From positions 352,001 through 416,000 of the forward strand of contig CAXXHB010000003.1 in the NCBI GenBank assembly GCA_963664815.2: DNA of 64,000 nucleotides, written 5' to 3'. Below are positions 39,006-63,948 of the stretch, piece by piece (the stretch's first letter is position 1; each line of letters begins with the position of its first letter). The notes beneath the pieces are model-generated. The model made no database searches. It saw nothing but the letters and a program-made list of their open reading frames with translations, and was not told the DNA's origin. A program made the position numbers and the translations under genes. The DNA comes from Spirochaetota bacterium. Its GTDB lineage: Bacteria > Spirochaetota > UBA4802 > UBA5550.

Positions 39006-40289
39006 ATGGCAACTTATCAGGAAATCAGACAAATGTGGTCAGATATAGGCATTGATCTGGATAAGCATGATATTTTTCTGGATACATTCCCCGGAGTATA
39101 TAAACGGATAATTCAGAAGCAGGAAAGAAGACCCGATAAGATAGATTATTTCAGCAGGATGGTGGCCAGTGTACATGGACGCCGTCCTTATGAACTTTTT
39201 GAACATAAACAGCAAGGGGGTAAGGTTTTTGGTGTCTATTGTGTTTATGTTCCGGATGAAATTATTCTGGCTTTAGGTGGAATCAGTACTGGTTTATGCG
39301 GTGGCGATCAGTTCTGGGTTCCCGGCGGAGAGAAATATTTGCCGGCAAATACCTGCCCATTGATTAAGTCTTCTATGGGATCACGCCTTGACAGAACCAG
39401 TCCCTTTTGCCAGATAGCAGATATCTTTATCGGGGAAGCTACATGTGACGGGAAGAAAAAAGCCTGGGAAATTCTGGCTCAGGATGTACCTATGCATATA
39501 ATGCAGGTACCACAGATGAAAAGGGAGGAGGACATCCGGAGTTTTGTCAGTGAAATACGGCAACTGATAAAAGTTTCCCAGGGTTTAACCGGTAAGCATT
39601 TAACCTTTGATGCTCTGGCCAGGAGTATAGTTACTATAAACAACAAGCGCAGAGCATTGAGCCGGCTTAATCTGACCAGACAGGCATCACCTGTACCCAT
39701 CAGCGGTAAGGACGCCCTCATGGTCATACAGGTGGCTTTCTATGATGATCCAATACGTTTTGTTGAAATGATCAATATTCTCTGTGATGAACTGGAAGAC
39801 AGGATAATTAAAAGAGAAGGTACTTTTTCTGCTGATACCCCCCGTATACTTGTGACGGGAACACCAATGGCTCTGCCAAACTGGAAACTTCATCACCTGA
39901 TAGAGACTTCCGGAGGAGTTGTTGTTTGTGAAGAAAGCTGCACAGGTACACGGTATTTTGAAAATCTTGTTGATGAAAACAGCAGTAATTTGGAAGAACA
40001 GATTATGGCTTTGGCCGATCGCTATATGAAAACCAATTGTGCATGTTTTACCCCCAATAGTGCACGGATTGAAGATATTCTTCGCTATGTTAAAGATTAT
40101 AATGCAGACGGTGTTATAGATTGCTCTCTGCAGTTCTGTGGTCTTTATTCCACAGAAAGTTATCTGCTGAGAGAGGCTTTGCGAAATGAAGGGATCCCCT
40201 TTCTTCATCTGGAAACGGATTATAGTGAACAGGATTCAGGACAGCTGCAGACGCGGATTGAGGCTTTCATGGAAATGATAAAAAAATAG
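39006..40289 (+). CDS. 2-hydroxyacyl-CoA dehydratase-family / double-cubane-cluster anaerobic reductase
   Basis: Cys motifs YCVY, GLCGG, TCPLIKS, TCDGKKK, EESCTGTRY, NCACF, LQFC; ETDYS...TRIEAFMEM. Confidence 0.85.
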   Translation: MATYQEIRQMWSDIGIDLDKHDIFLDTFPGVYKRIIQKQERRPDKIDYFSRMVASVHGRRPYELFEHKQQGGKVFGVYCVYVPDEIILALGGISTGLCGGDQFWVPGGEKYLPANTCPLIKSSMGSRLDRTSPFCQIADIFIGEATCDGKKKAWEILAQDVPMHIMQVPQMKREEDIRSFVSEIRQLIKVSQGLTGKHLTFDALARSIVTINNKRRALSRLNLTRQASPVPISGKDALMVIQVAFYDDPIRFVEMINILCDELEDRIIKREGTFSADTPRILVTGTPMALPNWKLHHLIETSGGVVVCEESCTGTRYFENLVDENSSNLEEQIMALADRYMKTNCACFTPNSARIEDILRYVKDYNADGVIDCSLQFCGLYSTESYLLREALRNEGIPFLHLETDYSEQDSGQLQTRIEAFMEMIKK

Positions 40290-46289: not shown

Positions 46290-46883
46290 TTGCCACGAGA
46301 ATCGGAAAAAGATTGGGACGATCAGCTATTCCAGAAAGTTGACAGATATAAACTGGCCCAGAATCTTGAAAGCTGTCTTCAATGCGGGAAATGCACGGGT
46401 AACTGCCCGGTTGCTGCGCTTACTACTTCTTATAATCCAAGGGCAATTATCAATGATATACTATCAGGGAATATATCCAGACTGCTGGACAGCGAAGAAA
46501 TCTGGAGATGTTTCTGGTGTGCAAATTGTTACAGGGTATGTCCGGTTGATATCAGTTATCCAATGCTTATGATGCAGCTCAGATATTTGGCACTTGAAAA
46601 TGGATACGGATTAAAATATGTCGTCAATATAAATAAATTTACATACAAAGCTCTTGATGAAGGTCTGAGTTTTGTACCCGGTGCGAAAGGTATAGAACGT
46701 ATAAAAAAACTTCGCACTGCGATAAACGTTTCTCCATGGCCTGAAGTATCAGAAAGGGCTAAAAAGGAATACAGGGAAATATTTGAACAAACCGGAGCCG
46801 TGGCGTGGATGAAAAAGATTGAATCTCAGGAGGAGAAAGGACTGAGAATGAGCTTCGCAGAAGGGAGAATTACAAATGAGTGA
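46290..46883 (+). CDS. hdrC: Heterodisulfide reductase-like subunit C (copy 1)
   Basis: CLQCGKCTGNCP and CFWCANCYRVCP; TTG start after GGAGG. Confidence 0.9.
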   Translation: MPRESEKDWDDQLFQKVDRYKLAQNLESCLQCGKCTGNCPVAALTTSYNPRAIINDILSGNISRLLDSEEIWRCFWCANCYRVCPVDISYPMLMMQLRYLALENGYGLKYVVNINKFTYKALDEGLSFVPGAKGIERIKKLRTAINVSPWPEVSERAKKEYREIFEQTGAVAWMKKIESQEEKGLRMSFAEGRITNE

Positions 46884-47835
46884 TAATATTCAAGTCAGGG
46901 TAATCAGACCGGAAGAACGGATACCGGAGATACCGGAAAAAATATTTCTTTTCCGCAGCTGTACCGGAAGCATGGAATACCCTGGAACAGAGCTTGCTGT
47001 CAAAACAGTACTGTCAAAAATCGGTGTTGAGGTTATAATGGATCCGGACCAGACATGCTGTTCGGGATATATACTAACATGTTCCGGGTATACACCTGAA
47101 GCTTCACTGGCGGTAACTGCAAGGAACCTCGCTATGGTTGAACAGAAGTATAATCTGGATACATATGCCTTTTGTAATGGATGCTTCGGATATATGCGCG
47201 AGTTGTCTCACATAGTAAATCATGCACCCGGCATGAAAGAGCAGGTGAATGAGCTTATAGGAAAATGGGGATATAATTATAAAGGTAAAACTACAATTTA
47301 TCATGTGCAGGAATTGTATTATCTATTGATAGATAGAATCAAATCTCTTGTTGTACGGCCTCTTAACGGTTTGCGGGTGGCATCACATTACGGCTGCCAT
47401 TACCTTGCTCAGCAGTATGGAATTCTTGATGATGGTGATTTGCCGACATTTCATGAAAAGATATATGAAGTTCTTGGAGCAACACCGGTTTTTTACAAAG
47501 AGAGAAGAATGTGTTGTGGTTATGCAGTAGGACGGGGATTTACTCACAAAGAAAGTATGGTGCAGCCTCATCTGTCAAGGAAATTTGACAGCGCCAAAGC
47601 GGAAGGAGTACAGCTTATGACTACTGTCTGTCCGGGATGTAACACAGGGCTTGACAGGGAACAGTCTAATCTTGCGGCAAAGGGATTCGGCCCTTATAAT
47701 ATTCCTGTTATAGATCTGTCTCAACTGATCGGGCTCGCTATTGGTTTGCCGATAAAAAGCCTCGGATTTCAGGCAAACAGCGTATCTATGGATGGTGTAT
47801 TAAATTTTTTGGGATTAAATAAGGAGATCGATTGA
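46876..47835 (+). CDS. hdrB: Heterodisulfide reductase-like subunit B (copy 1, divergent)
   Basis: Two CCG domains: FRSC...QTCCSG...CNGC and HYGCH...MCCG...CPGC. Confidence 0.9.
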   Translation: MSDNIQVRVIRPEERIPEIPEKIFLFRSCTGSMEYPGTELAVKTVLSKIGVEVIMDPDQTCCSGYILTCSGYTPEASLAVTARNLAMVEQKYNLDTYAFCNGCFGYMRELSHIVNHAPGMKEQVNELIGKWGYNYKGKTTIYHVQELYYLLIDRIKSLVVRPLNGLRVASHYGCHYLAQQYGILDDGDLPTFHEKIYEVLGATPVFYKERRMCCGYAVGRGFTHKESMVQPHLSRKFDSAKAEGVQLMTTVCPGCNTGLDREQSNLAAKGFGPYNIPVIDLSQLIGLAIGLPIKSLGFQANSVSMDGVLNFLGLNKEID

Positions 47836-48878
47836 TGAAAGATAAAACTGTTCTTGTAATAGGCGGCGGAATAGCCGGGATGGAAGCCGCATTGCAGATT
47901 GGTAATTCCGGTTATAAAGTTATGCTTGTGGAAAAAGAAAACTCACTCGGGGGAACTCTCCTCAACCTGTACAGCAGTTTCCCTCGGTGGGAGGATCCTG
48001 CCAGACTTGTGCAGATGAAATATGATGATCTTAAAAATTGCGGGAATGTTCAGATAAAAACCGGAACAGTACCTGTTGCAAGCACAAAGCAGGGAAAGGG
48101 ATACATTGTAGAACTCAAGGGTACTGACGGGCAGAATGATAAAGTTCAGGCTGATGCAGTTGTAATTGCAACGGGTTTCGGGCTTTTTGATGTTTCTGCA
48201 TATGGCGAATATGGATATGGCGAATATGATAATGTTCTCAATACACTCGAGTTTGAAGCGAAACTGAAGGAGTGGATTGAAGATAAATCAGGAATGATAA
48301 AAAAACCCAAGACAATTGCTTTTATCAAATGTGTCGGCTCGCGGGACAGGTCAAAAGGGTATCCTTACTGTTCTAAAATTTGCTGCATGATAACTGCAAA
48401 ACAGGCTGGACTTGTTAAAGATATTCTCCCGGACGCAAAATGTTTCGTTTTTTACATGGATTACCGTGCAGCGGGAAAGGAATACGAGGAATTTGTGCGT
48501 ACTGTTATTGAAGAAAAGCATGTTCGTTATGTCAGAGGCAGACCAGCCAAGATTCTGCCTGAAAACGGCAGAATGACTTTAAGGGTTGAAGATACTCTTA
48601 TGGGTGTACCTGTTGAGGTAAGGGCTGATATGGTTGTACTGGCTGCTGCAATAGAACCGAGTGCGGGGACAAAGCAAATGGCGGAGATTTTCAGACTGGA
48701 GTCAGATCATTACGGATTTTTGGAGACGGTTTACGGAAGTCCTTCAAGAGCATCTGATATGATTTTTGTCGCGGGTTCGTGTACATATGCGGTAGAGACA
48801 AAAGGGGCCCTGCAGCAGGGAGCATCAGCAGCAGCTGAAGTATTGGCCATGTTCGGCCGTGAAAATACAGGAGAATGA
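47832..48878 (+). CDS. hdrA: Short heterodisulfide reductase-like subunit A (FAD plus one Fe-S cluster, no ferredoxin inserts)
   Basis: VIGGGIAG, EYGYG, CVGSRD...CSKICC, FYMDYRA; only 348 aa. Confidence 0.9.
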   Translation: MMKDKTVLVIGGGIAGMEAALQIGNSGYKVMLVEKENSLGGTLLNLYSSFPRWEDPARLVQMKYDDLKNCGNVQIKTGTVPVASTKQGKGYIVELKGTDGQNDKVQADAVVIATGFGLFDVSAYGEYGYGEYDNVLNTLEFEAKLKEWIEDKSGMIKKPKTIAFIKCVGSRDRSKGYPYCSKICCMITAKQAGLVKDILPDAKCFVFYMDYRAAGKEYEEFVRTVIEEKHVRYVRGRPAKILPENGRMTLRVEDTLMGVPVEVRADMVVLAAAIEPSAGTKQMAEIFRLESDHYGFLETVYGSPSRASDMIFVAGSCTYAVETKGALQQGASAAAEVLAMFGRENTGE

Positions 48879-48879
48879 T

Positions 48880-49476
48880 ATGTCAGAAACAGTCCGGCAG
48901 ACATCAGAAGTTTTTTATCATTTAGTAAAACTGGATGAAACAGACAATAGACTGGCTGATGAAATAAAACAGAGCTGCGGTGTTGATATTGAGATGTGTC
49001 TGGAATGCGGTAAATGCACTGGCGGCTGTTCAAATACTCATATATTCGATTTTACACCACGGAAAATTATACAGCTTATAAAACTCGGACAGGAGGATAA
49101 ACTGTTGCATATGGATTCTCTGTGGACATGTGTTTCATGTCAACTCTGCTTTGACCGCTGCCCTTCAGGGATCAGCGTAGCCAGAATTATGGATTACCTT
49201 CGTGAAAAAAGTCATAAAAAAAATATTAAACCCTCACGTGAAAACGTTATGCTGTTCCATGAAATAGTATTGAGGTCAGTTCAGCATTCAGGAAGGCTTC
49301 ATGAACTTGGTTCCGTTATGCAGTTCAATATAAAAAGCGGAATGTTATTCAAGGATACGGAGCTTGGCATTAAAATGTTTTTTAAAGGCAAATTGAGTCT
49401 TTTTCATTTTAAAATCAAAGGCGTAAAACAGGTAAGACGCTTATTTAAATATTTTTATGCCGGGGGTGAAAAATAA
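48880..49476 (+). CDS. hdrC: Heterodisulfide reductase-like subunit C (copy 2)
   Basis: CLECGKCTGGC and CVSCQLCFDRCP; ATG 48880 preferred. Confidence 0.9.
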   Translation: MSETVRQTSEVFYHLVKLDETDNRLADEIKQSCGVDIEMCLECGKCTGGCSNTHIFDFTPRKIIQLIKLGQEDKLLHMDSLWTCVSCQLCFDRCPSGISVARIMDYLREKSHKKNIKPSRENVMLFHEIVLRSVQHSGRLHELGSVMQFNIKSGMLFKDTELGIKMFFKGKLSLFHFKIKGVKQVRRLFKYFYAGGEK

Positions 49477-50351
49477 TGATAAATGTAGCTTATTATCCCG
49501 GTTGTTCTTTAAAAGGAATGGCCAGCGAATATGATAAATCATCCCGCATTGTGTGCAGCCACCTGGGAATAAAACTTCATGAAATTAAAAACTGGAATTG
49601 CTGCGGGGCCACATCGGCTCACAGTTTAAATCATAACCTTGATATAAGTCTTTCAGCCCGTAATCTTGATATTGTAAAAAGCATGAACCTTGACCATGTG
49701 ACAAGTCCATGTCCTGGATGTTTTAGCCGCCTTAAAGGTTCATCTTTTGAAATGAGGAATAACACGGCAGTCAGAAATACAGTCGAGAAATTCCTGGGGA
49801 GATCCGCACCTGTTGAGCCCGAGGTCAGCAGTATGGTTCAGCTTATTGTTGAGAATAACAGTATGAAAGAGATTGCAAGTCATGTGGTAAAACCTCTTAA
49901 CGGGCTGAAAGCAGCCGTGTACTACGGGTGCCTTCTTACAAGGCCAAAAAAGATTGTGGGATTTGATGATCCGGAAAAGCCGATGTCTCTGGATTTTATA
50001 ATGCAGTCTGTTGGAGCTGAGACCGTCACCTGGGGCTGTAAAGCCGAATGCTGCGGGGGCGGATACTCTGTTTCGGAAACAGATATCGTTATGGATCTTT
50101 CATCCAGAATTTTGGAGTCAGCCCATCAGTCAGGTGCTGAGGCTATTGTTGTTGCATGTCCGCTTTGTCAGGCTAACCTGGATACAAGGCAGAAAGCTAT
50201 CAGTGAAAAGCAGGGGATTAAGTATAATTTACCTGTTATCTACTTTACTCAGCTTATGGGACTTGCTTACGGAGATAAGTCTTCGTCACTGGGGTTCAGG
50301 CGTCTGTTTATCAGTCCATTCAAACTTTTAAAATCAAAGGGGCTGATATAA
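49476..50351 (+). CDS. hdrB: Heterodisulfide reductase-like subunit B (copy 2)
   Basis: YYPGC, WNCCG, CPGC, YYGC, ECCGG, CPLCQ. Confidence 0.92.
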   Translation: MINVAYYPGCSLKGMASEYDKSSRIVCSHLGIKLHEIKNWNCCGATSAHSLNHNLDISLSARNLDIVKSMNLDHVTSPCPGCFSRLKGSSFEMRNNTAVRNTVEKFLGRSAPVEPEVSSMVQLIVENNSMKEIASHVVKPLNGLKAAVYYGCLLTRPKKIVGFDDPEKPMSLDFIMQSVGAETVTWGCKAECCGGGYSVSETDIVMDLSSRILESAHQSGAEAIVVACPLCQANLDTRQKAISEKQGIKYNLPVIYFTQLMGLAYGDKSSSLGFRRLFISPFKLLKSKGLI

Positions 50352-50527: not shown

Positions 50528-51514
50528 GTGAAAAACAAGCTTATTTCAATACAAGAGGCAGTAAAAAAATATACATGGGACGGTATGACTTTTGCCCATG
50601 GCGGTGCTTTACCTGTAGGTTCCGACTGTATAGCATTCTTTCGTGAAATGGTTCGCAATGGAGTAAAGGATATAAACTGCATTTCAAACTGTAATACACA
50701 GGGATCAAATCTGCTTGCCGGTGCCGGTCTCATGAAACGTATGGAGGTCGGGTTTTCCGGTCTTGAGGTATATGGTTTTGCCAACGGTCTTAAAAGGGTT
50801 GTGGAAAGCGGCAAGACAATTCTTGAAGACTATTCCAATGGAGCAATTCCACTCAGACTCATGGGTGGTGCTTTAGGCTGGCCATTTGTTCCCACATTTA
50901 TATGCACAGGTTCCGGTCAGCAATCCTGTTCTGCTGATGAACCGGATGTTTTTCCAAATAAAAAAAAGATACCCGAGATTAAAGATCCTTTTACCGGAGT
51001 TACAATGGGAGCTATGAAAAGTCTCACGCCTGATCTTGCAGTGATCCATGTAACTATGTCTGATATATACGGGAATGCGATTATGCTTGGTACGGAATGG
51101 AGTCGTTTTGAACTTTCCCGTGCATCTAAAAAGGTTATACTGCAGACAGATTATATTGTTGATACTGACTGTATAAAACAGTTTCCGAACCTTGTGAGGA
51201 TCCCTGATCTTGTTGTTGACGGAGTTGTCTATTGGCCCATGGGTGTATGGCCGGCATGTTCAACAGGTGTTTATGACAGTGATGAAGAACATATGGGGCT
51301 GATGAATAAACTGCTTAAAACAGAGGATGGCACAAAAGAATACATAGATAAATATGTCAGGAGTTACACCACATATGAGGAATACCTGGAAGTTATAGGC
51401 AAGGATAAGATCAAAACTCTCAAAGATACAGCAACCGCATTTTTAATGGATCCTTATAAAAAATGGATAGTAAGCGATTCTGAGATCAAGTCTTCGATGG
51501 GGGGAGGTAAATAA
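50528..51514 (+). CDS. Family I CoA-transferase alpha subunit (GctA-like), copy 1
   Basis: KLISIQEAV, LEDYSN...RLMGGALGWPF, PDLAVIH..SDIYGNA. Confidence 0.9.
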   Translation: MKNKLISIQEAVKKYTWDGMTFAHGGALPVGSDCIAFFREMVRNGVKDINCISNCNTQGSNLLAGAGLMKRMEVGFSGLEVYGFANGLKRVVESGKTILEDYSNGAIPLRLMGGALGWPFVPTFICTGSGQQSCSADEPDVFPNKKKIPEIKDPFTGVTMGAMKSLTPDLAVIHVTMSDIYGNAIMLGTEWSRFELSRASKKVILQTDYIVDTDCIKQFPNLVRIPDLVVDGVVYWPMGVWPACSTGVYDSDEEHMGLMNKLLKTEDGTKEYIDKYVRSYTTYEEYLEVIGKDKIKTLKDTATAFLMDPYKKWIVSDSEIKSSMGGGK

Positions 51515-52308
51515 TGGAATATTCTAAAAATGAAGGGATGGCGATTGCCACAGGGAGAGAATTTAATGATGGTGAGCTTGCAATATTCGGCGTGGGTCTG
51601 AGTATGCTTGCAGGATTTTTCGCACAGAAGAATCATGCTCCGAATCTTATAGCATTCACTGAGGGTGGAGTATACGGGTCTACTCCTGTCGGAGGACTGC
51701 CGTGGGGTATTGAGGATAACCGCATATCCGCGAATGCAACAAGCTTTACAAATGCCATTGATGCTCTTGGTATGCTCGTGGCATCGGGCAGGGTCGACAA
51801 TGCTGTAATAGGGGCTGCACAGATTGATAAATTCGGAAACGTTAATACTACAGGTATATGGGACGAAGGAACACAGCCGTGGAAGGTTGGAAGATATACT
51901 CTTCCAAAAGTAAGACTTAACGGAAGCGGCGGCGCTAACGAAATCGCTGTTGGTGCCAAAAAATATTTAATAATGGCAGCTCATGAGAAAAAAAGATTTG
52001 CCGACAGAGTGGATTATATTTCCTCACCCGGCTACATTGATGGAGGAAATGCACGCCAGAGATACGGTTTTCCTGGTGGCGGCCCTTCAGCTATCATCAC
52101 AAATCTTGGTATACTGAGGCCTGATCCGGTAACAAAGGAATTTTATCTGGATGCGTATTTCAGCCATTCGTCTGTTGAAGAAATAATAGAGAATACAGGC
52201 TGGGTGTTAAAGATATCTCCGAATGTCAAGATGGTTCCTGAACCAACTGAGAAAGAACTTGAGAATCTGAGAGCGGTTGATGCGACAGGATCGCTACGGA
52301 AAAAATAA
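51514..52308 (+). CDS. Family I CoA-transferase beta subunit (GctB-like), copy 1, catalytic Glu retained
   Basis: FGVGL, HAPNLIAFTEGG, GAAQIDKFGNVNTT, RLNGSGGANEI. Confidence 0.9.
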   Translation: MEYSKNEGMAIATGREFNDGELAIFGVGLSMLAGFFAQKNHAPNLIAFTEGGVYGSTPVGGLPWGIEDNRISANATSFTNAIDALGMLVASGRVDNAVIGAAQIDKFGNVNTTGIWDEGTQPWKVGRYTLPKVRLNGSGGANEIAVGAKKYLIMAAHEKKRFADRVDYISSPGYIDGGNARQRYGFPGGGPSAIITNLGILRPDPVTKEFYLDAYFSHSSVEEIIENTGWVLKISPNVKMVPEPTEKELENLRAVDATGSLRKK

Positions 52309-52459
52309 TATATTGGCAGGCAGCATAATAACCATGTGAAACATGATTATTTTCTGCCTGTTTAAAATAAGGTAAAGAATTTAATTCAGTATTTATATTC
52401 AGTCACTTGGAACCAGTAGTAGAAAGAGTAAAAATAAATTTAATCAAAGGAGGTTGAAA

Positions 52460-53275
52460 ATGCACGAAAAGTTGATGTCATTATCAAAGGCTGCCGATCT
52501 CATCAGAAATGATATGCTGCTCAGCTTCGGTGGTAATGGGATGCATCGTAATCCTGTTGCTTTTGCATTAGCCCTTACAAAGAGACCTTTAAAAAGTCTC
52601 AGGATGTGCGGGGCTGCACCTGGAATTGCGACTGATATCATGATGCCACAGTCTTGTGAAGCATATTTCGGTTTTTTTGGTCTGGAAAATGAGGCCGGCC
52701 TGGCACCAGGTATGAGAAAAGCGATGGAGGGGGCAAATCCTACAGTCAAGGCATATGAGGGTTCCTGAACGGCGATGATTGCTGCTCTCCGTGCGGGAGC
52801 CTATGGAATACCCTTTATGCCAGTCGGAGGCATGTGGGGAAGCGACTTAGTTGCATTACGCCCAGATTTTTATCAAGTCATGAAAAGCCCGTTTGACGGG
52901 AAAGAAGTAGTATGTGTTAAAGCTCTTGTGCCTGATTATGCCGTAATTCATGTACAGGAAGCGGATATCTACGGGAATGCCCGTATACTCGGCCCGAGTT
53001 ATCAGGATGCGCTTCTTGCAAGAGCAGCAAAAAAAGTAATAATAACAGCAGAGCGAATAGTGGGTACATACCGGATGCAGGAAGAACCTAAGCTTACGGC
53101 AATTCCTCATATGCTGGTTGAAGCTGTTGTTGAAGTACCCGGCGGTGCTAAACCCGGAATTTGTTATCCTGATTATCTCACTGCTGACTGGGATGCTCAT
53201 AAGGCTTATCAGAAAGCTGTGAAGGAAGGTACGGTATCGGACTGGGTGGCTAAACTTTTGGAAGGGAGGTCATAA
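52460..53275 (+). CDS. CoA-transferase alpha-like subunit, copy 2, with in-frame UGA (candidate selenocysteine, codon 103)
   Basis: Track ORFs 52454-52768 and 52775-53275 share a frame: GAG GGT TCC TGA ACG GCG ATG. Read-through gives a continuous 271-aa GctA-like protein. AAGGAGG precedes ATG 52460 and there is no strong SD before 52775. Confidence 0.8.
52769..52800 (+). promoter_or_regulatory. Bacterial SECIS-like hairpin
   Basis: GCTC(T)CC-GTGC-GGGAGC at 52784-52800; the apical loop begins with GU 23 nt after the UGA, and there is a bulged U on the 5' arm. Confidence 0.65.
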
Positions 53276-53276
53276 A

Positions 53277-54014
53277 ATGGAATATGGAAAACCTGAAATG
53301 ATGGCAGTAGCCCTCATACGTGAAATACAGGAAAATGACGTTGTGTTCCATGGTCTTGCTTCATCTACTCCAATGGTGGCCATGAAAGCGGCCAAGGCAC
53401 TTGGCAAAGATTATACATATGTTACTCTCAGTGACGGTCTGGACCATGACTGGAAAAGACCCCCATATTTCGCATCCACACTTTCTGAAAATACTTATAC
53501 TGGTTCCGTGGCGACTTTCGGACTGGATGAAATATTCGATCTTTATATGTCCGGTAAAGGAGATATAGCTTTCCTTTCATGCCTTCAGATGGATAAAACA
53601 GGAAGGATCGCGATGTCATACGTTGGCGGAGAATATGATCATCCGAAACTCAGGGGGCCGGGAGGAGCAGGCAGCGCCTCGCTTACGCCTATGACTCCCA
53701 GAACAATAATCTGGAAAACTCAGCATGACAAGAGAACTTTTATCGAGCACGTAGATTTTGCAACAACATCACCGGCTGTTGATAAAATGTTCACTCTGGT
53801 TACGCCTCTTTGTATTTTCAGGAAGCCGGTTGGAGAAAAACTTCTTAAACTGGATTGTATTTTCCCGTACACAACACTGGAAGAAGTTAAGGAAAATACC
53901 GGATGGGTAATTGATGAAACAAAAGTACCTGTAATGGATCCCCCTACAGAGGCTGAATTGTCAGCAATCAAGAGAGTGGATCCTAACAATATTCTTGCTT
54001 ACGAGTTTAAATAG
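53277..54014 (+). CDS. CoA-transferase beta-like subunit, copy 2 (canonical Glu apparently absent)
   Basis: EMMAVAL, FHGL, FLSCLQMDKTG, LRGPGGAGS, HDKRTF, ENTGW; VTLSDG where copy 1 has FTEGG. Confidence 0.88.
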   Translation: MEYGKPEMMAVALIREIQENDVVFHGLASSTPMVAMKAAKALGKDYTYVTLSDGLDHDWKRPPYFASTLSENTYTGSVATFGLDEIFDLYMSGKGDIAFLSCLQMDKTGRIAMSYVGGEYDHPKLRGPGGAGSASLTPMTPRTIIWKTQHDKRTFIEHVDFATTSPAVDKMFTLVTPLCIFRKPVGEKLLKLDCIFPYTTLEEVKENTGWVIDETKVPVMDPPTEAELSAIKRVDPNNILAYEFK

Positions 54015-54036: not shown

Positions 54037-54081
54037 TGCCAAACAGGAACAGAGTAGCTGGTGCTTCGTTCCTGTTTGGCA
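54037..54081 (+). terminator. 14-bp inverted repeat after the second beta subunit
   Basis: TGCCAAACAGGAAC...GTTCCTGTTTGGCA. Confidence 0.6.
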
Positions 54082-54155
54082 AAAAATATTGCTGTAATTT
54101 ATATTTTATTGTTTAGCAGGATTTAAAATTTTAATGTGGTGGAATGGTGATTTTT

Positions 54156-55805
54156 ATGAGTAAAAAAGTACTTATAGTCGGAGGTGTTGCAGGTGGAGCC
54201 AGCACTGCTGCGAGACTCAGGAGACTTGACGAAAATGCTGAGATTATTATGTTTGAACGTGGTGAATTTATTTCATTTGCCAACTGCGGGCTTCCATATT
54301 ATGTAGGGGGTGCTATTGTAAACAGGAAAAGCCTTTTCGTACAGACTCCTCAGTCAATGAAAAAACGATTTAACCTGGACGTTCGTATACACAGCGAAGT
54401 CGTAAAAATTTTTCCTTCTGAAAAGAAGGTTGAAGTCCGCAGCATTCAGAAAGGGGAGAATTACTTTGAGACCTATGATTACCTTGTACTTTCTCCGGGA
54501 GCGCAGCCCGTTTTACCGGACATAAAAGGACTGAATCTTCCAAATGTATTCAGTGTCCGCAATGTTCCTGACAGTGATGCAATAAAGCAGTTTATCGATG
54601 CTCATAAGCCTGCAACAGCTGTGATAATAGGCGGAGGTTTTATAGGTATGGAAATGGCAGATGTGCTTCATCAGTGCGGAGTAAAGACAACTGTTGTTGA
54701 AGCGGCAGACCGGATTATGAATCTCTGGCTTGACGGGGAAATGGCAACAACAGTACAGCAGTATATAAATAAGAAAGGAATAGAGCTTGTTTTAAATGAT
54801 AAAGTTGCGGTTCTCGAGGGTTCTTCTGGAGTTGAGAGGGCAGTTCTTGAAAGCGGCAGAGAAATTTCTGCGGAGATTGTAATTCTCGGTACAGGAGTAA
54901 AACCTGAGGTATGGCTTGCAGAAGATGCCGGACTTGTCATTGGCTCCACGGGCGGGATACACGTGGATGAATATCTGCGGACCTCAAATGAATTTATTTA
55001 TGCAGTTGGCGATGCCATTGAAGTAAAAAATATGATTACGGATAAATATGAACTGATGTTTCTTGCAGGTCCTGCCAACAGGCAGGGGAGGCTTGCGGCA
55101 GATAATATTGCAGGAAGACCATCTAAATATTCCGGTTCACAGGGAACAGCAATAATAAAAATAATAGATATGACTGTGGCTGTAACCGGTGCGAACGGGA
55201 AAAGTCTCAGTAATTCAGGAATACCTTTTCTCGCGTGTCATATACATCCCGCTTCTCATGCGGCATACTATCCCGGCGGAACGCAGATGTCGATCAAACT
55301 TTTTTTCACCCCTGATGAAGGAAAAATCCTCGGGGCACAGATTGTGGGATTTGACGGAGTTGACAAGCGCATTGATGTTTTTGCAACTGCTGTCAGGGCT
55401 GGAATGACAGTGTTTGATCTCACTGAGCTTGAGCTGGCCTATGCACCCCCATTTTCATCGGCAAAGGATCCAGTGAATATGGCCGGGTATGTGGCCTCAA
55501 ACATATTGCTTAAGGATATTGAAGTGGTTTACTGGAAAGATGTTCCGGCACTTGTTTCAGGAGGTGCATTTCTCCTTGACGTTCGCATGCCGTCAGAAGT
55601 AGAGGCTGGGGCGGTTAATGGTTCGGTTAATATACCTGTTGATGATCTGAGAAACCGCATTGAAGAGATACCTAAAGACAAGGTGATCCTGGTTTACTGC
55701 CAGGTGGGTCTGCGTAGCTATATCTCTAATCGTATATTAAAGCAGAAAGGATTTATTGTAAAGAATATCAGCGGAGGATACAAGTCCTTCCAATCACAAA
55801 AGTAA
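54156..55805 (+). CDS. CoA-disulfide reductase with C-terminal rhodanese (CoADR-RHD/Npsr-like)
   Basis: IVGGVAGGAS, SFANCGLPY, IIGGGFIG, ELAYAPPFSSAKDP, rhodanese LLDVR...YCQVGLR; ATG 54156 preferred. Confidence 0.92.
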   Translation: MSKKVLIVGGVAGGASTAARLRRLDENAEIIMFERGEFISFANCGLPYYVGGAIVNRKSLFVQTPQSMKKRFNLDVRIHSEVVKIFPSEKKVEVRSIQKGENYFETYDYLVLSPGAQPVLPDIKGLNLPNVFSVRNVPDSDAIKQFIDAHKPATAVIIGGGFIGMEMADVLHQCGVKTTVVEAADRIMNLWLDGEMATTVQQYINKKGIELVLNDKVAVLEGSSGVERAVLESGREISAEIVILGTGVKPEVWLAEDAGLVIGSTGGIHVDEYLRTSNEFIYAVGDAIEVKNMITDKYELMFLAGPANRQGRLAADNIAGRPSKYSGSQGTAIIKIIDMTVAVTGANGKSLSNSGIPFLACHIHPASHAAYYPGGTQMSIKLFFTPDEGKILGAQIVGFDGVDKRIDVFATAVRAGMTVFDLTELELAYAPPFSSAKDPVNMAGYVASNILLKDIEVVYWKDVPALVSGGAFLLDVRMPSEVEAGAVNGSVNIPVDDLRNRIEEIPKDKVILVYCQVGLRSYISNRILKQKGFIVKNISGGYKSFQSQK

Positions 55806-58095: not shown

Positions 58096-59289
58096 TTATT
58101 CCCCCCTTTCTACAATTATAGTTTCGTTGCTCTGATAATAACCGCCGTTATCAGAGATAAGCATGAATTCAGGAAGCTTTGTGCCCGGTATTACCCCTAA
58201 CTGACGATCTCCGCAGCGCTTAGACATCTGCATCACCGCCTCAGCCATCGGAGTAAGGCCCATATAATAACCTTCAGAGAGCAGACCGCCTCCAGTGTTT
58301 ACTGGGAATGCGCCGCCGGGCCCGATATTTTCCACTGTCATGAAGTCGCGGGATTTATTCTTGTCGAAGAACCCATAGTCACCCAGAGTTGCCTCAACTG
58401 TGTATGTGTAGCAATCGTATATCTGGGCTGCACCTATGTCTTTTGGCTCTAAGCCGGCCATCTGGAAAGCTTCACGTCCGGCTACAGCGGCACTGCTTGC
58501 GGGATCACCCGGTGTAAGCTGCCAGCCTTTGGAGGTGTCATTGGCAGCACCGAAACTGCGGATCTTTACGGGCGGATTCTTAAGGTGTTTAGCCCGTTCT
58601 GTGGTGGTGATGATAACAGCCCGGCCGCCGTCAGTTGATGCCGTGGCATCTAAGGCACGGAATGGCCATGAAAGAAACGGTGTAGCCAGGTAGTCATCCT
58701 TTGTCAAAGGCTTGCTGTACTGAATGGCCTTGGGATTCAGATTAGCCCATTTGCGGTGTGCAATAGCTATATCTCCCCATACATCGGGCCCTGTCCCATG
58801 TTCATGCATGGCACGACTGGCGAAAATTGCATAATTTGTGAAAGCAGAAATATTACCGTAAGCGCCGTACTCATCATAGGGCTTGTTGCTTAACAGGTCA
58901 ATTTCGTCTGTCCATGTACGGCGGCCGGTTCTGCCACTCTCGGCAAATACAATCAGTACATATTTACATGTACCGTTTTCAAGAACACCAATCGCTTTAT
59001 TGATGTTGGTGCGGTAGCAGTAAGCTTCCTGGCTTAAGAATTTCGGGCGTATGCCCAGACTGGAGGTTATTACGTTGGCTGTATGGTGAAAAGCGTCTCC
59101 AGACAAAATTGGAAAATCACGGTAAAGAATCAGACCATCTATATCATCCTTCTTTAATCCCGCATCATTAATGGCGTTCATGGTCGCTTCGAGATAAAAA
59201 CTCGCTGCGGAACGTCCAGAAACTACTCCCTGCGGTGTATAACCGACACCGGCAAAGGCATATTTGTTTCTTAATCCTGTACGATCCAT
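58096..59289 (-). CDS. Thiolase-fold protein, SCP-x/Ltp2-like (possible retro-aldolase)
   Basis: AGVGYT, DIDGL, NPKA, TDGGRA, IYDCYT, VNTGGGLLSEGYYMG (no GHP). Confidence 0.85.
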   Translation of the reverse strand: MDRTGLRNKYAFAGVGYTPQGVVSGRSAASFYLEATMNAINDAGLKKDDIDGLILYRDFPILSGDAFHHTANVITSSLGIRPKFLSQEAYCYRTNINKAIGVLENGTCKYVLIVFAESGRTGRRTWTDEIDLLSNKPYDEYGAYGNISAFTNYAIFASRAMHEHGTGPDVWGDIAIAHRKWANLNPKAIQYSKPLTKDDYLATPFLSWPFRALDATASTDGGRAVIITTTERAKHLKNPPVKIRSFGAANDTSKGWQLTPGDPASSAAVAGREAFQMAGLEPKDIGAAQIYDCYTYTVEATLGDYGFFDKNKSRDFMTVENIGPGGAFPVNTGGGLLSEGYYMGLTPMAEAVMQMSKRCGDRQLGVIPGTKLPEFMLISDNGGYYQSNETIIVERGE

Positions 59290-60213: not shown

Positions 60214-61452
60214 TTACATCTTTTCCAGTATATGTATACACATGGAGGCCTCTTCAACTCCGATATTGCCGCCGCCGTTTTCTGCAAGACCAATTCTGGC
60301 ACCTGCGACCTGTCGTGGACCTGCGTCACCCCGTAGCTGCAGAACTAATTCATGGATCTGGGCAAGGCCTGATGCCCCTATGGGATGCCCTCTGCATTCC
60401 AGTCCGCCGCTTGTGTTTACAGGTTTTTTCCCTCCGAGTGTGGTTGCACCTGATTCTGCATATGGGCCGCCTTCGCCGGTTTTGCAGAATCCCATTGATT
60501 CGCACTGGTGTAGTTCACCCCAGCTGGTGGCGTCATGCAGCTCGGCAAAATCTATATCATCCGGCCCGAGTCCGGCCGTTTCATATGCCTGTTTAGAAAG
60601 TCTTTCGCCAATATCAGGTGCATCAAGGGGACGGTTCTCACCCTGTCCGAGTACCGAAGCGCGTATTTTTACAGGGCGTGCTCCGATAAGTTTTTTAAGA
60701 AACCTGTCCGAACAGATAATTACAGCTGCTGCACCATCTCCAAGAGGTGCACACATAGCACGGGTGAGAGGCCATGCGATTTTTTTATCAGCAAGAACCT
60801 CTTCAACAGACATTTTCTGCTGATACTGTGAGTATGGATTAAGAGAACCATGCAGGTGGTTTTTTGAACAGATTACAGCAAGTTGTTTCTGTGTCGATCC
60901 GAAACGGTCCATATGCCAGCGGGCACCCATGGCATATGCATCCATAAAAATGCTTCGGCCTTCCCCGGGCCTGGAGCCGTCGTCAGGGATTGATACTTTC
61001 AATGTTTTTCCGATTTCTTCCATCATTTTTAACTGATTTAACATATTCCCGACATCCATACAGGATGCGTAGGCTCCCATGGCCACGTTTTTATCAGGGT
61101 GTGATATTTTTTCCGATCCGACTGCTATTGCAGCTTCATACATTCCGGCACGTATTCCAGTGTATGCAAGATGAAGTGCTGTTGAGGCTCCGGCACAGGC
61201 ATTTTCAACATTTGTTACAGGTATTTTATCAATTCCCATTCCCCGGAACACAACCTGACCCCGTATGGAATGCTGCCGCTCATACATCCCCCAGAAAGTA
61301 TTGGAAAAAAATCCCGCCTGAATGTCTTTTTTTGTAAGGTTAGCATCTGCAAGAGCCAGATCAATTACCTTTTCCGCCATTGATTTTACAGTATCATCAG
61401 GATATTTATTAAAGCGTATCATTCCTGATCCGATGATGTATACATCATTCAT
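60214..61452 (-). CDS. SCP2-type thiolase (acetyl-CoA acyltransferase family)
   Basis: VENACAGAS, AELHDA, GHPIGASG, ENGGG. Confidence 0.92.
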   Translation of the reverse strand: MNDVYIIGSGMIRFNKYPDDTVKSMAEKVIDLALADANLTKKDIQAGFFSNTFWGMYERQHSIRGQVVFRGMGIDKIPVTNVENACAGASTALHLAYTGIRAGMYEAAIAVGSEKISHPDKNVAMGAYASCMDVGNMLNQLKMMEEIGKTLKVSIPDDGSRPGEGRSIFMDAYAMGARWHMDRFGSTQKQLAVICSKNHLHGSLNPYSQYQQKMSVEEVLADKKIAWPLTRAMCAPLGDGAAAVIICSDRFLKKLIGARPVKIRASVLGQGENRPLDAPDIGERLSKQAYETAGLGPDDIDFAELHDATSWGELHQCESMGFCKTGEGGPYAESGATTLGGKKPVNTSGGLECRGHPIGASGLAQIHELVLQLRGDAGPRQVAGARIGLAENGGGNIGVEEASMCIHILEKM

Positions 61453-61488: not shown

Positions 61489-63948
61489 TTATTCTATCCA
61501 ATCCACCTGAGGGAATTCCCTCTCGACAGGTTTGTCTATCTGCACTGCAGGATACCCTATAACAATTGATGTTGCCACAAGATCGTATGGCCATTTAATA
61601 CCCAGTTTTTTCCTGAGTTTTTTGCTCATATTTACCGGTTCTGTCCCGAATCCGGCATAACAGGTTCCAAGACCAAGAGAATGTGCCGCGAGTACCATGT
61701 TCTGGCAGCACATGCCGGTGCTGAATACAGGTGTTGATATACCCATGTGATGCACAAGGACATAGATTACTGTTGTCGCACCGAAAAATATATCCATTTG
61801 CTTTTCACCGAACTGTGGTGTAAGTAGCGCCTGTATAGCCACCATCGGCCGCTGGTCAATACCGTCCGGACGCAGAAAAGCCGCGCTGTTTTTCACCAGT
61901 TTCCGAAACGGACCTCTGCCCTGGTAAATGCGGGTAACCATTCCGAGAGTCCTTGTGCAATCTCTGCTCAATTCATCAAGGAGTGCACGATCCCTTATAA
62001 CAATAAATTTCCATGGTTGTGAATTTCCTGCCGAAGGTGAAAAGCGCCCTGCCTCAAGTATACGGTGGACTAACTCCCGGGGGACTGCTTCATCTGTAAA
62101 GACACGGTTGGATCTTCGGCGGTAAATAATACGCTCTGTAGAGGTAATTTTATTTTCAATAACTGCGAAAGCTGGAGGATTCTCCTGCATGAATGGGTTT
62201 GGATATCCCTTTCCTTTTTCAGGTATACCAAGTGCGGTATTTGACCAGCGGCCTTTTTCAATCCTGTAGTAATTCGGAAATGTAAGAGCATCTTGTGGAC
62301 ATATTGCCTCGCAGTTGTGGCATGCAAGGCACACTTTTCCGAAATATTCAGATCTGCTGCCGGTAAATTCAGATTTATAATTGCCGCAGGAGATGCATCT
62401 TCCAGATTCGCTTGATACCTGGTCGGGCGTAAGACTTCCGTCAACAGGGTTGCTTATGCTTTTAAGGCGCTCAACAAAGCCCGGTCTTACTGCACAATTT
62501 CGTTCAGTATTTTTATAGCCGTATAGAGGTACATTACGGAAAGATATTTCCTTTTTTAAAGGAACTGAATATTTTTTTCCGGAAAGATAAGCGTTTATGG
62601 AAAACGCGGCATTTTTACCGGCACCTATTGCGGCTGTTACTGTCGCGGACCCGTTTAAAACATCACCACCTGCGAATACTCCGGCATGTTTAGTCATCCA
62701 TGTGTCATCTGCAATAAGACGGCCATTTTCAAAAATCTCTTCAAAGCCGCTGGGTTCCACCTCCTGACCTATGGCATAAACAGCCAGATCTGCCTCCATG
62801 TCGAATTCTCCACCTTCAGCCGGCAAAGGGCGGCTTCTGCCGGAATCATCCTCTTCATATAAACGCATCCGCGTGCATTTTATTTTTAATGGGCCGTTTC
62901 CGGTATGGGTGATGTTAAGCGGCGCCGAGAGAAATTCAATTTTTACACCTTCCTCAAGTGCATCGCTGATATCTTTATCGAATGCAGGCATCTCTTTTCT
63001 TGAGCGCCGGTAAAGGATTGTAGCTTCAGCACCGCACCTTCTTGCCGTTCGCGCTACATCTATGGCGGTGTTTCCGCCTCCGATTACTATTACATTCCGC
63101 GCATCCGGCATCTCCTCTCCTTCACGGATATTCCTTAAAAAATCGAGTCCGGACAGAACCCGGCCGAATATTGGGAAATCAGTTTTTTTACTATTTGCGG
63201 TTCCGATAGCCAAATAGACTGCATTATAGTCTGACATGAGCGTTTTTAATGATATATCACTTCCTGCTTTAACCCCGAGTTTCAGTGTAACACCCATGTC
63301 TGTTATACGCTGATATTCGCCGTCAATCAGATCAGAAGAGAGCCGAAATGCAGGTATAGCATATCTGAGCATTCCCCCGGGTTTCAGATCAGCCTCATAA
63401 ACAGTAACATCGTGGCCCATCCGTGTAAGCTGATAAGCGCAGGACATGCCAGATGGCCCGGAGCCCACAATGGCAATTTGTTTTCCGCTTTTTTTCTCAG
63501 GTTTAATGAAGGATTTTTTTTCTTTGATTCCCCACTCTCCGATGAAACGTTCAATCTCATTAATATTAACAGATTCATCAAGGTTTTGACGGTTGCATCC
63601 CCCCTCGCAGGGGTGAGGACATACCATTCCTGTAATGGCCGGGAACGGGTTAGCATCCGTGATTATATCCCACACCTCTTCATATGTTCCTCCATCAGCC
63701 AGCACCTTCATATACTTTCTCACATCCACCCCTGATGGACAATTATGCTGGCAGGCCGGCTCCTGGTTGCCGGAGTATGCCCGGGATACAAGTGAAAGTG
63801 TCTGGCACGGGCATTGCTGAACACAAAGCCCGCATCCGATACATTTTTCATCATCAAGAATAATACTGAAAGGTGTTTTGACTACCGGCGGATCGCTTAA
63901 TATTCTGAATTTCTGAGTAAAACTTCCGTTCATAAAGTTATTCTCCAT
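61489..63948 (-). CDS. Ferredoxin / GltD-like NAD(P)-FAD oxidoreductase / nitroreductase fusion
   Basis: CIGCGLCVQQCP; PACQHNCP...VCPHPCE; IVGSGPSG; VIGGGNTAID; CLACHNCEAICP; RRRSNR...SPSAGNSQPW...AAHSLGLGTC. Confidence 0.88.
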   Translation of the reverse strand: MENNFMNGSFTQKFRILSDPPVVKTPFSIILDDEKCIGCGLCVQQCPCQTLSLVSRAYSGNQEPACQHNCPSGVDVRKYMKVLADGGTYEEVWDIITDANPFPAITGMVCPHPCEGGCNRQNLDESVNINEIERFIGEWGIKEKKSFIKPEKKSGKQIAIVGSGPSGMSCAYQLTRMGHDVTVYEADLKPGGMLRYAIPAFRLSSDLIDGEYQRITDMGVTLKLGVKAGSDISLKTLMSDYNAVYLAIGTANSKKTDFPIFGRVLSGLDFLRNIREGEEMPDARNVIVIGGGNTAIDVARTARRCGAEATILYRRSRKEMPAFDKDISDALEEGVKIEFLSAPLNITHTGNGPLKIKCTRMRLYEEDDSGRSRPLPAEGGEFDMEADLAVYAIGQEVEPSGFEEIFENGRLIADDTWMTKHAGVFAGGDVLNGSATVTAAIGAGKNAAFSINAYLSGKKYSVPLKKEISFRNVPLYGYKNTERNCAVRPGFVERLKSISNPVDGSLTPDQVSSESGRCISCGNYKSEFTGSRSEYFGKVCLACHNCEAICPQDALTFPNYYRIEKGRWSNTALGIPEKGKGYPNPFMQENPPAFAVIENKITSTERIIYRRRSNRVFTDEAVPRELVHRILEAGRFSPSAGNSQPWKFIVIRDRALLDELSRDCTRTLGMVTRIYQGRGPFRKLVKNSAAFLRPDGIDQRPMVAIQALLTPQFGEKQMDIFFGATTVIYVLVHHMGISTPVFSTGMCCQNMVLAAHSLGLGTCYAGFGTEPVNMSKKLRKKLGIKWPYDLVATSIVIGYPAVQIDKPVEREFPQVDWIE

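Follow-up and report, generated by a model that had tools for sequence, protein, structure and literature searches.

A tandem of CoA-transferase-fold gene pairs in a Spirochaetota bacterium: a predicted GctAB-type transferase beside a putative selenocysteine-containing enzyme that lacks the catalytic glutamate

In a Spirochaetota bacterium, the forward strand carries four CoA_trans (PF01144) genes, arranged head to tail at positions 50528-54014 of a stretch of 64,000 nucleotides (contig CAXXHB010000003.1, 352,001-416,000), which is called the window in this text. They form two alpha/beta pairs. The first consists of GctA-like alpha-1 (50528-51514, 328 residues, PF01144 2.1e-15) and GctB-like beta-1 (51514-52308, 264 residues, PF01144 4.3e-22). 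After a spacer of 151 nucleotides it is followed by the second, with alpha-2 (52460-53275, 271 residues when an in-frame UGA is read through) and beta-2 (53277-54014, 245 residues, PF01144 1.3e-09), the latter without the catalytic glutamate. The PF01144 match of alpha-2 (9.2e-17, residues 6-225) spans the TGA, and pair 2 shares only about 25-30% identity with pair 1. On balance, we favour the view that two distinct enzymes, which share the alpha/beta CoA-transferase fold, are encoded here, pair 1 being a transferase and pair 2 an enzyme in which selenocysteine 103 (Sec103) of alpha-2 would serve as a nucleophile or redox residue. Relatives of pair 2 were sampled at 80 genomic loci, 21 of which are referred to as the closest.

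The beta-1 subunit contains the string NLIAFTEGG, in which Glu50 is encoded by GAG at 51661-51663. Both the residue and its coordinates are as given in a preliminary description of the window, which had read LIAFTEGG at this place and had taken pair 1 for a true transferase. When beta-1 was aligned with GctB of Acidaminococcus fermentans (1poi_B, 5.8e-41), Glu50 fell on the Glu of IIVESG (FTEGG against IVESG); in the available part of PMC5380842, Glu54 of the beta subunit is the catalytically essential residue of glutaconate CoA-transferase. In alpha-1, EDYSNG is aligned to EDYSQD of GctA (1poi_A, 1.2e-25), so that Asn104 occupies the site of the GctA Gln and of Glu105 in IpdA. Comparison of alpha-1 with the alpha-2 family by hhalign gave 2.9e-35. 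The same residues were observed in the pair-1 orthologues that lie beside a pair-2 relative, the beta Glu being present in 12/12 and the alpha Asn in all 11 whose alpha subunit fell within the fetched DNA. Judged from these alignments, pair 1 is predicted to be an ordinary family-I CoA-transferase of the GctAB type, which would activate a carboxylic acid through a glutamyl-CoA intermediate on beta Glu50, and the earlier assignment is supported.

For beta-2, whose sequence includes ...DYTYVTLSDGLDHD..., the string YTYVTLSDG was found at 53412-53438. The preliminary description had the string right but placed it at 53421-53438, a range that covers only VTLSDG (residues 49-54). The Glu site is occupied by Leu51 (53427-53429). 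In HMMER alignments, made with the single sequence and with a profile of 38 family members, Leu51 falls on the AibB position that is mutated across the deposited structures, Cys56. Since this cysteine replaces the conserved catalytic Glu of the glutaconate CoA-transferases, as stated in the accessible portion of PMC7756340, Leu51 is taken as the Glu-equivalent residue. An ungapped read-across, anchored on APD/GKD and on the downstream Asp, again put Leu51 opposite Glu. The hhalign comparison of the beta-2 family with beta-1 disagreed, beta-1 Glu50 lying there in an insertion between Ser52 and Asp53. We prefer the HMMER and ungapped alignments through AibB Cys56, and by either route beta-2 has no Glu at this site.

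A beta-2-like partner was present at 75 of the 80 loci. At the Leu51 position it has Ile in 52 cases, Leu in 16, Val in six and Gly in one, and among these 75 partners neither Glu nor Asp ever occurs there. Because one of these four residues is found in every partner, the loss of the glutamate is not a matter of chance; the corresponding column of the 38-member family contains Ile (20), Leu (16) and Val (2). The earlier claim that beta-2 is devoid of the catalytic Glu was thus borne out. Asp53 (53433-53435) was considered as a substitute nucleophile and rejected: it lies at +2 from the Glu-equivalent position, and 22 of the 38 relatives have Gly in its place. The refuting case named in the preliminary description, with the Asp or another Glu at the nucleophile position, does not apply. 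As a separate observation, the beta partners of three Cys-type alpha subunits (L041, L049 and L051; two loci from Acidilobaceae archaea and one from 'Muproteobacteria') have a Glu at +2 from the Leu51-equivalent residue (SVAEP, SVTEA and SGAEG). In these distant relatives, an acidic residue close to the former nucleophile site may have been retained or recovered.

With Leu at the nucleophile position, the glutamyl-CoA mechanism would not be available to pair 2. The glycine-rich loop R126-x-P-G-G-A-G of beta-2, which we take to be the GxGG motif of family-I beta subunits, is nevertheless kept; P128, G129, G130, A131 and G132 are invariant in the family, and the pocket for the CoA thioester is therefore probably preserved. 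Pair 2 is thus best described, as far as its sequence goes, as a putative non-transferase with its key residue in the alpha subunit.

This residue is encoded by the in-frame UGA at 52766-52768, which is codon 103 of alpha-2 if translation starts from the ATG at 52460 (TTG at 52454 being an alternative start) and which stands in the motif E100-x-x-U/C103. Across the 80 loci, codon 103 is TGA in 23 and a Cys codon in 57, and nothing else; for the 21 closest loci the counts are 19 and two. The TGA and Cys loci span Syntrophomonas, Syntrophobacteraceae, Pelotomaculum, Desulfosporosinus, Desulfovibrionaceae, Thermodesulfobacteriota, Methylomirabilia and Chloroflexi. In full-length homologues Cys103 is invariant (41/41), within an equally invariant E100-x-x-C motif. 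The two halves of alpha-2 are in the same frame, and an identity of 60-80% is maintained across the TGA. Furthermore, the genome contains selA, selB, selD and a tRNA-Sec with the anticodon TCA. The genes selB and selA and the tRNA-Sec are clustered on contig C2 (15627-23707), while selD (contig C3, 2287335-2288261) itself holds one in-frame TGA and is therefore probably a selenoprotein gene too.

Downstream of the UGA, at 52784-52800 (+19 to +35 from its U), lies a hairpin resembling a selenocysteine insertion sequence (SECIS), GCUCUC-CGUGC-GGGAGC. When the window and 19 orthologues were compared, 99.2% of 120 cells were paired in the 6-bp helix closed by the CGUGC loop, against merely 27.5-66.7% in registers slid along the sequence. 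Compensatory changes were detected in 2/6 pairs, and 0/500 shuffles reached the covariation score. An orthologue with Cys (L019) encodes the same residues by other synonymous codons and has no hairpin. In addition, four more lineages, belonging to Thermodesulfobacteriota, Methylomirabilia and Chloroflexi, have TGA at codon 103 (L054, position 2964; L059, 7096; L069, 1792; L074, 1622) and, at an equal distance from it, another kind of hairpin, which is GC-rich and GGCUGCGGGCCGCAGCC-like. Near the gene in L059, GrdB-like and GrdA-like glycine-reductase selenoprotein genes were also seen.

If the TGA were instead a real stop, the alpha-2 gene would have been disrupted or split, and pair 2 would be a copy of pair 1 in decay. 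Such an explanation is in line with the gene calls, which split alpha-2, and with the homologue search, which returned many entries of 166 or 152 residues that correspond to the C-terminal piece, together with full-length proteins. It also agrees with the finding that the window hairpin, taken by itself, is no better than shuffled sequences (z -0.35, 75/200 as good; z -0.54, 58/200 as good); moreover, the hairpin overlaps conserved codons (ALRAGA), so that its support is of a comparative kind. A real stop is nonetheless hardly credible in view of the recurrence of TGA at this one codon in 23 loci of several phyla with Cys in the other 57, of the two well-conserved halves in one frame, of the compensatory changes in the hairpin and of the complete selenocysteine machinery of the genome. 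The identity of about 25-30% between the pairs argues against a recent duplicate, and the short database entries arise because gene callers cut at the TGA. We therefore regard the reading of the alpha-2 UGA as selenocysteine, predicted from these comparisons, as very probable. The preliminary description had seen in the loss of the beta glutamate a support for a functional UGA; this loss is no evidence in itself, and the reading rests on the independent observations given above.

The gene that follows beta-2 (54144-55805, forward strand) encodes a protein of 553 residues in which a flavoprotein resembling CoA-disulfide reductase (CoADR) is fused to a rhodanese domain (Pyr_redox_2 6.8e-56, Rhodanese 1.4e-13). 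It contains the motifs SFANCGLPYY and CQVGLRS and scores 500 bits with TIGR03385, below the cut-off of 578.8. Directly upstream of alpha-1, on the same strand, lies a set of heterodisulfide-reductase (Hdr)-like genes (46290-50351), in the order HdrC-like, HdrB-like, short HdrA-like (348 residues), HdrC-like and HdrB-like. Their products match the Pfam families Fer4, CCG and Pyr_redox_2, as well as NCBIfam models of HdrA, HdrB and HdrC below the respective cut-offs. This order resembles the arrangement hdrC1B1A(hyp)C2B2 of the sulfur-oxidising sHdr systems; no gene for a lipoate-binding protein, TusA or DsrE was recognised near the set.

The closest loci have the same five Hdr-like genes followed by alpha-1 and beta-1, often a transporter gene, and then alpha-2 with Sec, beta-2 and the CoADR-rhodanese gene, the Hdr set being found in the same order in 12/21 close loci. 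The transporter gene of other genomes, which is of the major facilitator superfamily or CstA+M50 in L002-L005, L008-L010 and L022, stands at the site of the spacer between the two pairs. In the window, this spacer contains a hairpin followed by UUUAAAAU (52315-52362, forward strand; fold -19.8 kcal/mol, z -3.38, 0/200 shuffles as good), which may be a terminator or attenuator. A second hairpin, of 14+5 bp, lies between the beta-2 stop and the CoADR-rhodanese gene (54037-54081; -29.2 kcal/mol, z -6.89) and has no U-run behind it.

Within 8 kb of the Cys/Sec pair, a CoADR-like flavoprotein was encoded at 38/80 loci and its rhodanese fusion at 7/80, while the Hdr set and a pair-1 orthologue were each found at 12/80; since contig ends truncate many of the loci, these counts are minimum values. 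The division of labour between two adjacent pairs, as the preliminary description had proposed it, is thus not obligatory, a pair-1 orthologue being this close in only 12 of the 80 loci. The CoADR-like neighbour was seen both in the Hdr cluster and in microcompartment loci, which are unrelated settings, and is therefore the most constant companion of the Cys/Sec pair. The second setting was observed in Firmicutes with the Cys-type pair (L024 1261-12524; L025, L030, L033, L042 and others). There, the genes for an aldehyde dehydrogenase, shell proteins, PduL and a SBP_bac_1-like protein are followed by those for the CoADR-like flavoprotein, alpha, beta, an Fe-alcohol dehydrogenase and DhaK/DhaL. 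The alpha/beta pair and the flavoprotein may be the signature enzyme of this type of locus. The type is not described in the main text of the microcompartment surveys PMC8217296 and PMC6620236, as far as that text was available, and the supplementary tables of these surveys may list it. Literature searches for a microcompartment locus with this pair gave nothing relevant.

To locate residue 103 in the fold, the alpha-2 family was aligned as a profile with alpha subunits of solved structure. The Cys/Sec column falls, free of gaps, on the Glu of REMDEGM in IpdA, on the Gln of EDYSQD in GctA, on the Gly of EHDGY in AibA and on Asn104 of alpha-1. The IpdA residue in this column is the one that differs between the entries 6co6 and 6coj, and the title of the latter, 'IpdAB E105A COCHEA-CoA complex', identifies it as Glu105. 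The analogy with IpdAB that the preliminary description had drawn was in this way sharpened, Sec103 lying exactly on IpdA Glu105 in the profile alignment. In an AlphaFold2 model of alpha-2 (mean predicted local distance difference test 91.7), residue 103 is the first of a helix (103-115) that comes after a strand (97-100). The top Foldseek matches of this model were IpdA, AibA and GctA (TM 0.85-0.88), with 6con_A (IpdA) in first place (2.8e-23, TM 0.87) and AibA in second (TM 0.88, root-mean-square deviation 2.3).

A profile search of 1.84 billion representative sequences retrieved 3896 relatives. Among the best 150 of these 3896, the alpha site is Glu in 55, Cys in 29, Asn in 17, Gly in 15, His in eight, a gap in six and another residue in 20, and the 14 best full-length matches all have Cys. 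By this pattern the Cys/Sec proteins are one subfamily, and the alpha-subunit position is a switch point of the superfamily, with Glu, Cys/Sec, Asn/Gln, Gly or His, where Asn/Gln goes with true transferases.

The coincidence of Sec103 with IpdA Glu105 bears on the possibility that pair 2 is a hydrolase or retro-Claisen lyase like IpdAB, in which Sec or Cys at position 103 would be the base or nucleophile for C-C cleavage of a beta-keto or cyclic acyl-CoA, without any redox step. IpdA is the top Foldseek match, and beta-2 is without Glu just as IpdB, which has Gly57 in its beta subunit according to the available text of PMC5380842. Two thiolase-like genes lie nearby in the window (58096-59289 and 60214-61452), and the same portion of that article has a thiolase following IpdAB in steroid catabolism. 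We consider this possibility unlikely, since the surroundings of the pair showed no sign of steroid or ring catabolism and since the recurrent CoADR-like neighbour (38/80 loci) is left unexplained. Furthermore, uses of selenocysteine other than in redox or covalent-redox chemistry are rare; the selenoprotein families tabulated in the available part of PMC13188914 are mostly redox proteins. The preliminary description had assigned to pair 2 a lyase or hydrolase activity repurposed through the alpha-subunit Sec. The Sec and the loss of the Glu are supported, whereas the lyase or hydrolase chemistry is not established, and the association with CoADR-like and Hdr-like genes is at least as suggestive of redox or covalent chemistry at a thiol or selenol.

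The closest solved relative of beta-2 is AibB (1.3e-17 with the single sequence and 2.7e-35 with the profile, against 1e-20 for GctB and 3.6e-12 for IpdB by profile). Together with the second rank of AibA in the Foldseek search and with the nearness of pair 1 to glutaconate CoA-transferase, this could be read as the sign of an AibAB-like decarboxylase, acting on a glutaconyl-type acyl-CoA made by pair 1, in which residue 103 would do no more than give a proton to the enolate. Such an enzyme appears distinctly unlikely here. Being largely deprotonated at neutral pH, a selenol is a poor general acid. AibAB does employ a Cys as general acid, according to the accessible text of PMC7756340, but this Cys occupies the Glu site of the beta subunit, a position held by Leu in beta-2, and AibA has Gly in the Sec103 column. 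The strict invariance of Cys/Sec103 also differs from the dispensable Cys56 of AibB reported in that text, and a decarboxylase would leave the CoADR-like neighbour without a function.

By sequence and comparison, the four subunits can be identified, and with them the loss of Glu, the Sec codon, its alignment with IpdA Glu105 and the gene associations. From the residue type, position and invariance of Sec103 and from the gene neighbours, we infer for pair 2 CoA binding, a nucleophilic or redox role of Sec103, the partners and the kind of substrate. Pair 2 most likely binds CoA or an acyl-CoA, given the fold and the glycine-rich loop. Sec103, or Cys in the relatives, would then act as the nucleophile towards the bound acyl-CoA or CoA and pass into a selenenyl-sulfide or seleno-ester state. 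The adjacent CoADR-like flavoprotein would restore the enzyme with NAD(P)H, and in the window cluster the Hdr-like iron-sulfur complex may do so as well, while pair 1 would probably supply the acyl-CoA.

Another candidate is an acyl-group transferase working through an acyl-selenoester or acyl-thioester on residue 103, which would carry the acyl group from CoA to another thiol or acceptor, in contrast to the exchange of CoA between acids. The invariant nucleophile lies next to the site of the thioester carbonyl in the transferases, and the glycine-rich loop is kept. The Sec103 column presumably corresponds to Gln110 of TbASCT and Gln99 of SCOT. This Gln contacts the bound acid, according to the available text of PMC12817287. 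A transferase of this kind is very unlikely in our opinion, as no gene for a second-thiol carrier was recognised in the cluster and the disulfide reductase neighbours are not explained by acyl transfer itself. We know of no precedent for acyl-selenoester transfer in the CoA-transferase fold.

Several points weigh against a nucleophilic or redox Sec103 in pair 2. Within 8 kb, a CoADR-like gene was not found at 42/80 loci, and the Hdr set and pair 1 were each not found at 68/80, many of these loci being truncated at contig ends. A single-sequence phmmer alignment with wild-type IpdA places Gly101, and not Sec103, opposite Glu105. The single-sequence alignment is ambiguous at 103 because the window alpha-2 has two extra residues (NP) upstream, which most family members lack, and for this reason only the profile gives a clean match of Sec103 with Glu105. 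The AlphaFold2 model is that of a monomer. The comparison with IpdA also leans on the catalytic role that was reportedly described for Glu105 by Crowe and coworkers in 2018. In addition, an active-site Cys need not be essential, as seen in AibAB (AibB Cys56; PMC7756340, in the part available).

Beyond the role of residue 103, a wider and frankly tentative proposal would place pair 2, together with its Cys relatives, in a new class of reductive acyl-CoA enzymes that depend on a thiol or selenol. In such a class, the target of Sec103 would be C-alpha or C-beta of the bound acyl-CoA or else the sulfur of CoA, and a selenenyl-sulfide, possibly Se-S-CoA, would remain. This Se-S 'heterodisulfide' would be the physiological substrate of the CoADR-like flavoprotein and, in syntrophs, of the HdrC-B-A-C-B complex. 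Were this so, bacterial acyl-CoA metabolism would be linked to heterodisulfide-type electron transfer, and the signature enzyme of a Firmicutes microcompartment type would be identified.

Two other features of the window may be mentioned. The gene at 39006-40289 codes for a double-cubane-cluster anaerobic reductase (NF040772, 473 bits, above the cut-off of 350); it lies directly downstream of the gene for a sigma-54 activator with CBS and PAS domains (37057-38943) and stands alone, no activator ATPase for this reductase being recognised. The two thiolase-like genes mentioned above, which are of the SCP-x type, adjoin a reverse-strand gene (61489-63948) for a fusion of 818 residues, composed of a ferredoxin-like part, a flavoprotein resembling the glutamate-synthase small subunit and a C-terminal nitroreductase.

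If the proposed role is correct, pair 2 is a third and widespread re-use of the CoA-transferase fold, in which a reactive Cys or Sec of the alpha subunit takes the IpdA site, after the two already known, the IpdAB hydrolase and the AibAB decarboxylase. It would add a family of selenoproteins not found in the selenoprotein literature that was searched, and the Sec reading explains why the alpha subunits of syntrophic and sulfate-reducing bacteria are called as two gene fragments. It would also provide a testable link between acyl-CoA metabolism, flavoproteins of the CoA-disulfide-reductase type and the bacterial Hdr-like complexes, for which few substrates are known. The Cys-type pair in the microcompartment loci of cultivable Firmicutes, among them Anaerocolumna aminovalerica DSM 1283, Acetanaerobacterium elongatum and Paenibacillus species, offers an experimental route to the substrate.

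Like known bacterial selenoproteins such as formate dehydrogenase and glycine reductase, alpha-2 has an in-frame UGA, Cys homologues, a genome with selA, selB, selD and tRNA-Sec, and a bacterial SECIS hairpin with a GU-containing apical loop about 25-29 nucleotides downstream. It differs from them in that the available text of the 2026 prokaryotic selenoproteome review does not name PF01144 as a family; term searches of that text, which does include a Sec form of CoA-disulfide reductase, and of the available text of the deep-Sep paper found no selenoprotein of the CoA-transferase fold. Wider literature searches for such a selenoprotein gave nothing relevant, and NCBIfam has no model that names the Cys/Sec alpha-2 family.

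Among enzymes of the fold, GctAB (1POI) shares with pair 1 the two-subunit layout and the aligned beta Glu, and has Gln where alpha-1 has Asn. With pair 2 it shares the fold (4.6e-51 for the alpha-2 family profile), but pair 2 has Leu for the beta Glu and Sec for the alpha Gln. AibAB, the 3-methylglutaconyl-CoA decarboxylase of Myxococcus xanthus (5MZW-5N03), resembles pair 2 as a non-transferase with an active-site Cys, AibB being closest to beta-2 (2.7e-35) and AibA structurally near alpha-2 (TM 0.88). Its Cys, dispensable in the available account, occupies however the Glu site of the beta subunit, at which the beta-2 family has Leu, Ile or Val, and AibA has Gly where the alpha-2 family has an invariant Cys or Sec. 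IpdAB, the hydrolase that cleaves the ring of COCHEA-CoA in Rhodococcus jostii and M. tuberculosis (6CO6, 6CO9, 6COJ, 6CON), has in common with pair 2 the fold, a beta subunit without Glu and a special residue in the same column of the alpha subunit, Glu105 of IpdA corresponding to Sec103. The differences are that all 80 loci have Sec or Cys and not Glu, at an identity of about 25%, and that the steroid ring C/D context of IpdAB (echA20, ipdC, fadA6) was not seen around pair 2, whose neighbours are the Hdr-like, CoADR-rhodanese and transporter genes or, elsewhere, microcompartment genes. Thus, non-transferase members of the CoA-transferase fold were already known, and what is new is a clade with Cys or Sec at the alpha site that is tied to disulfide reductases.

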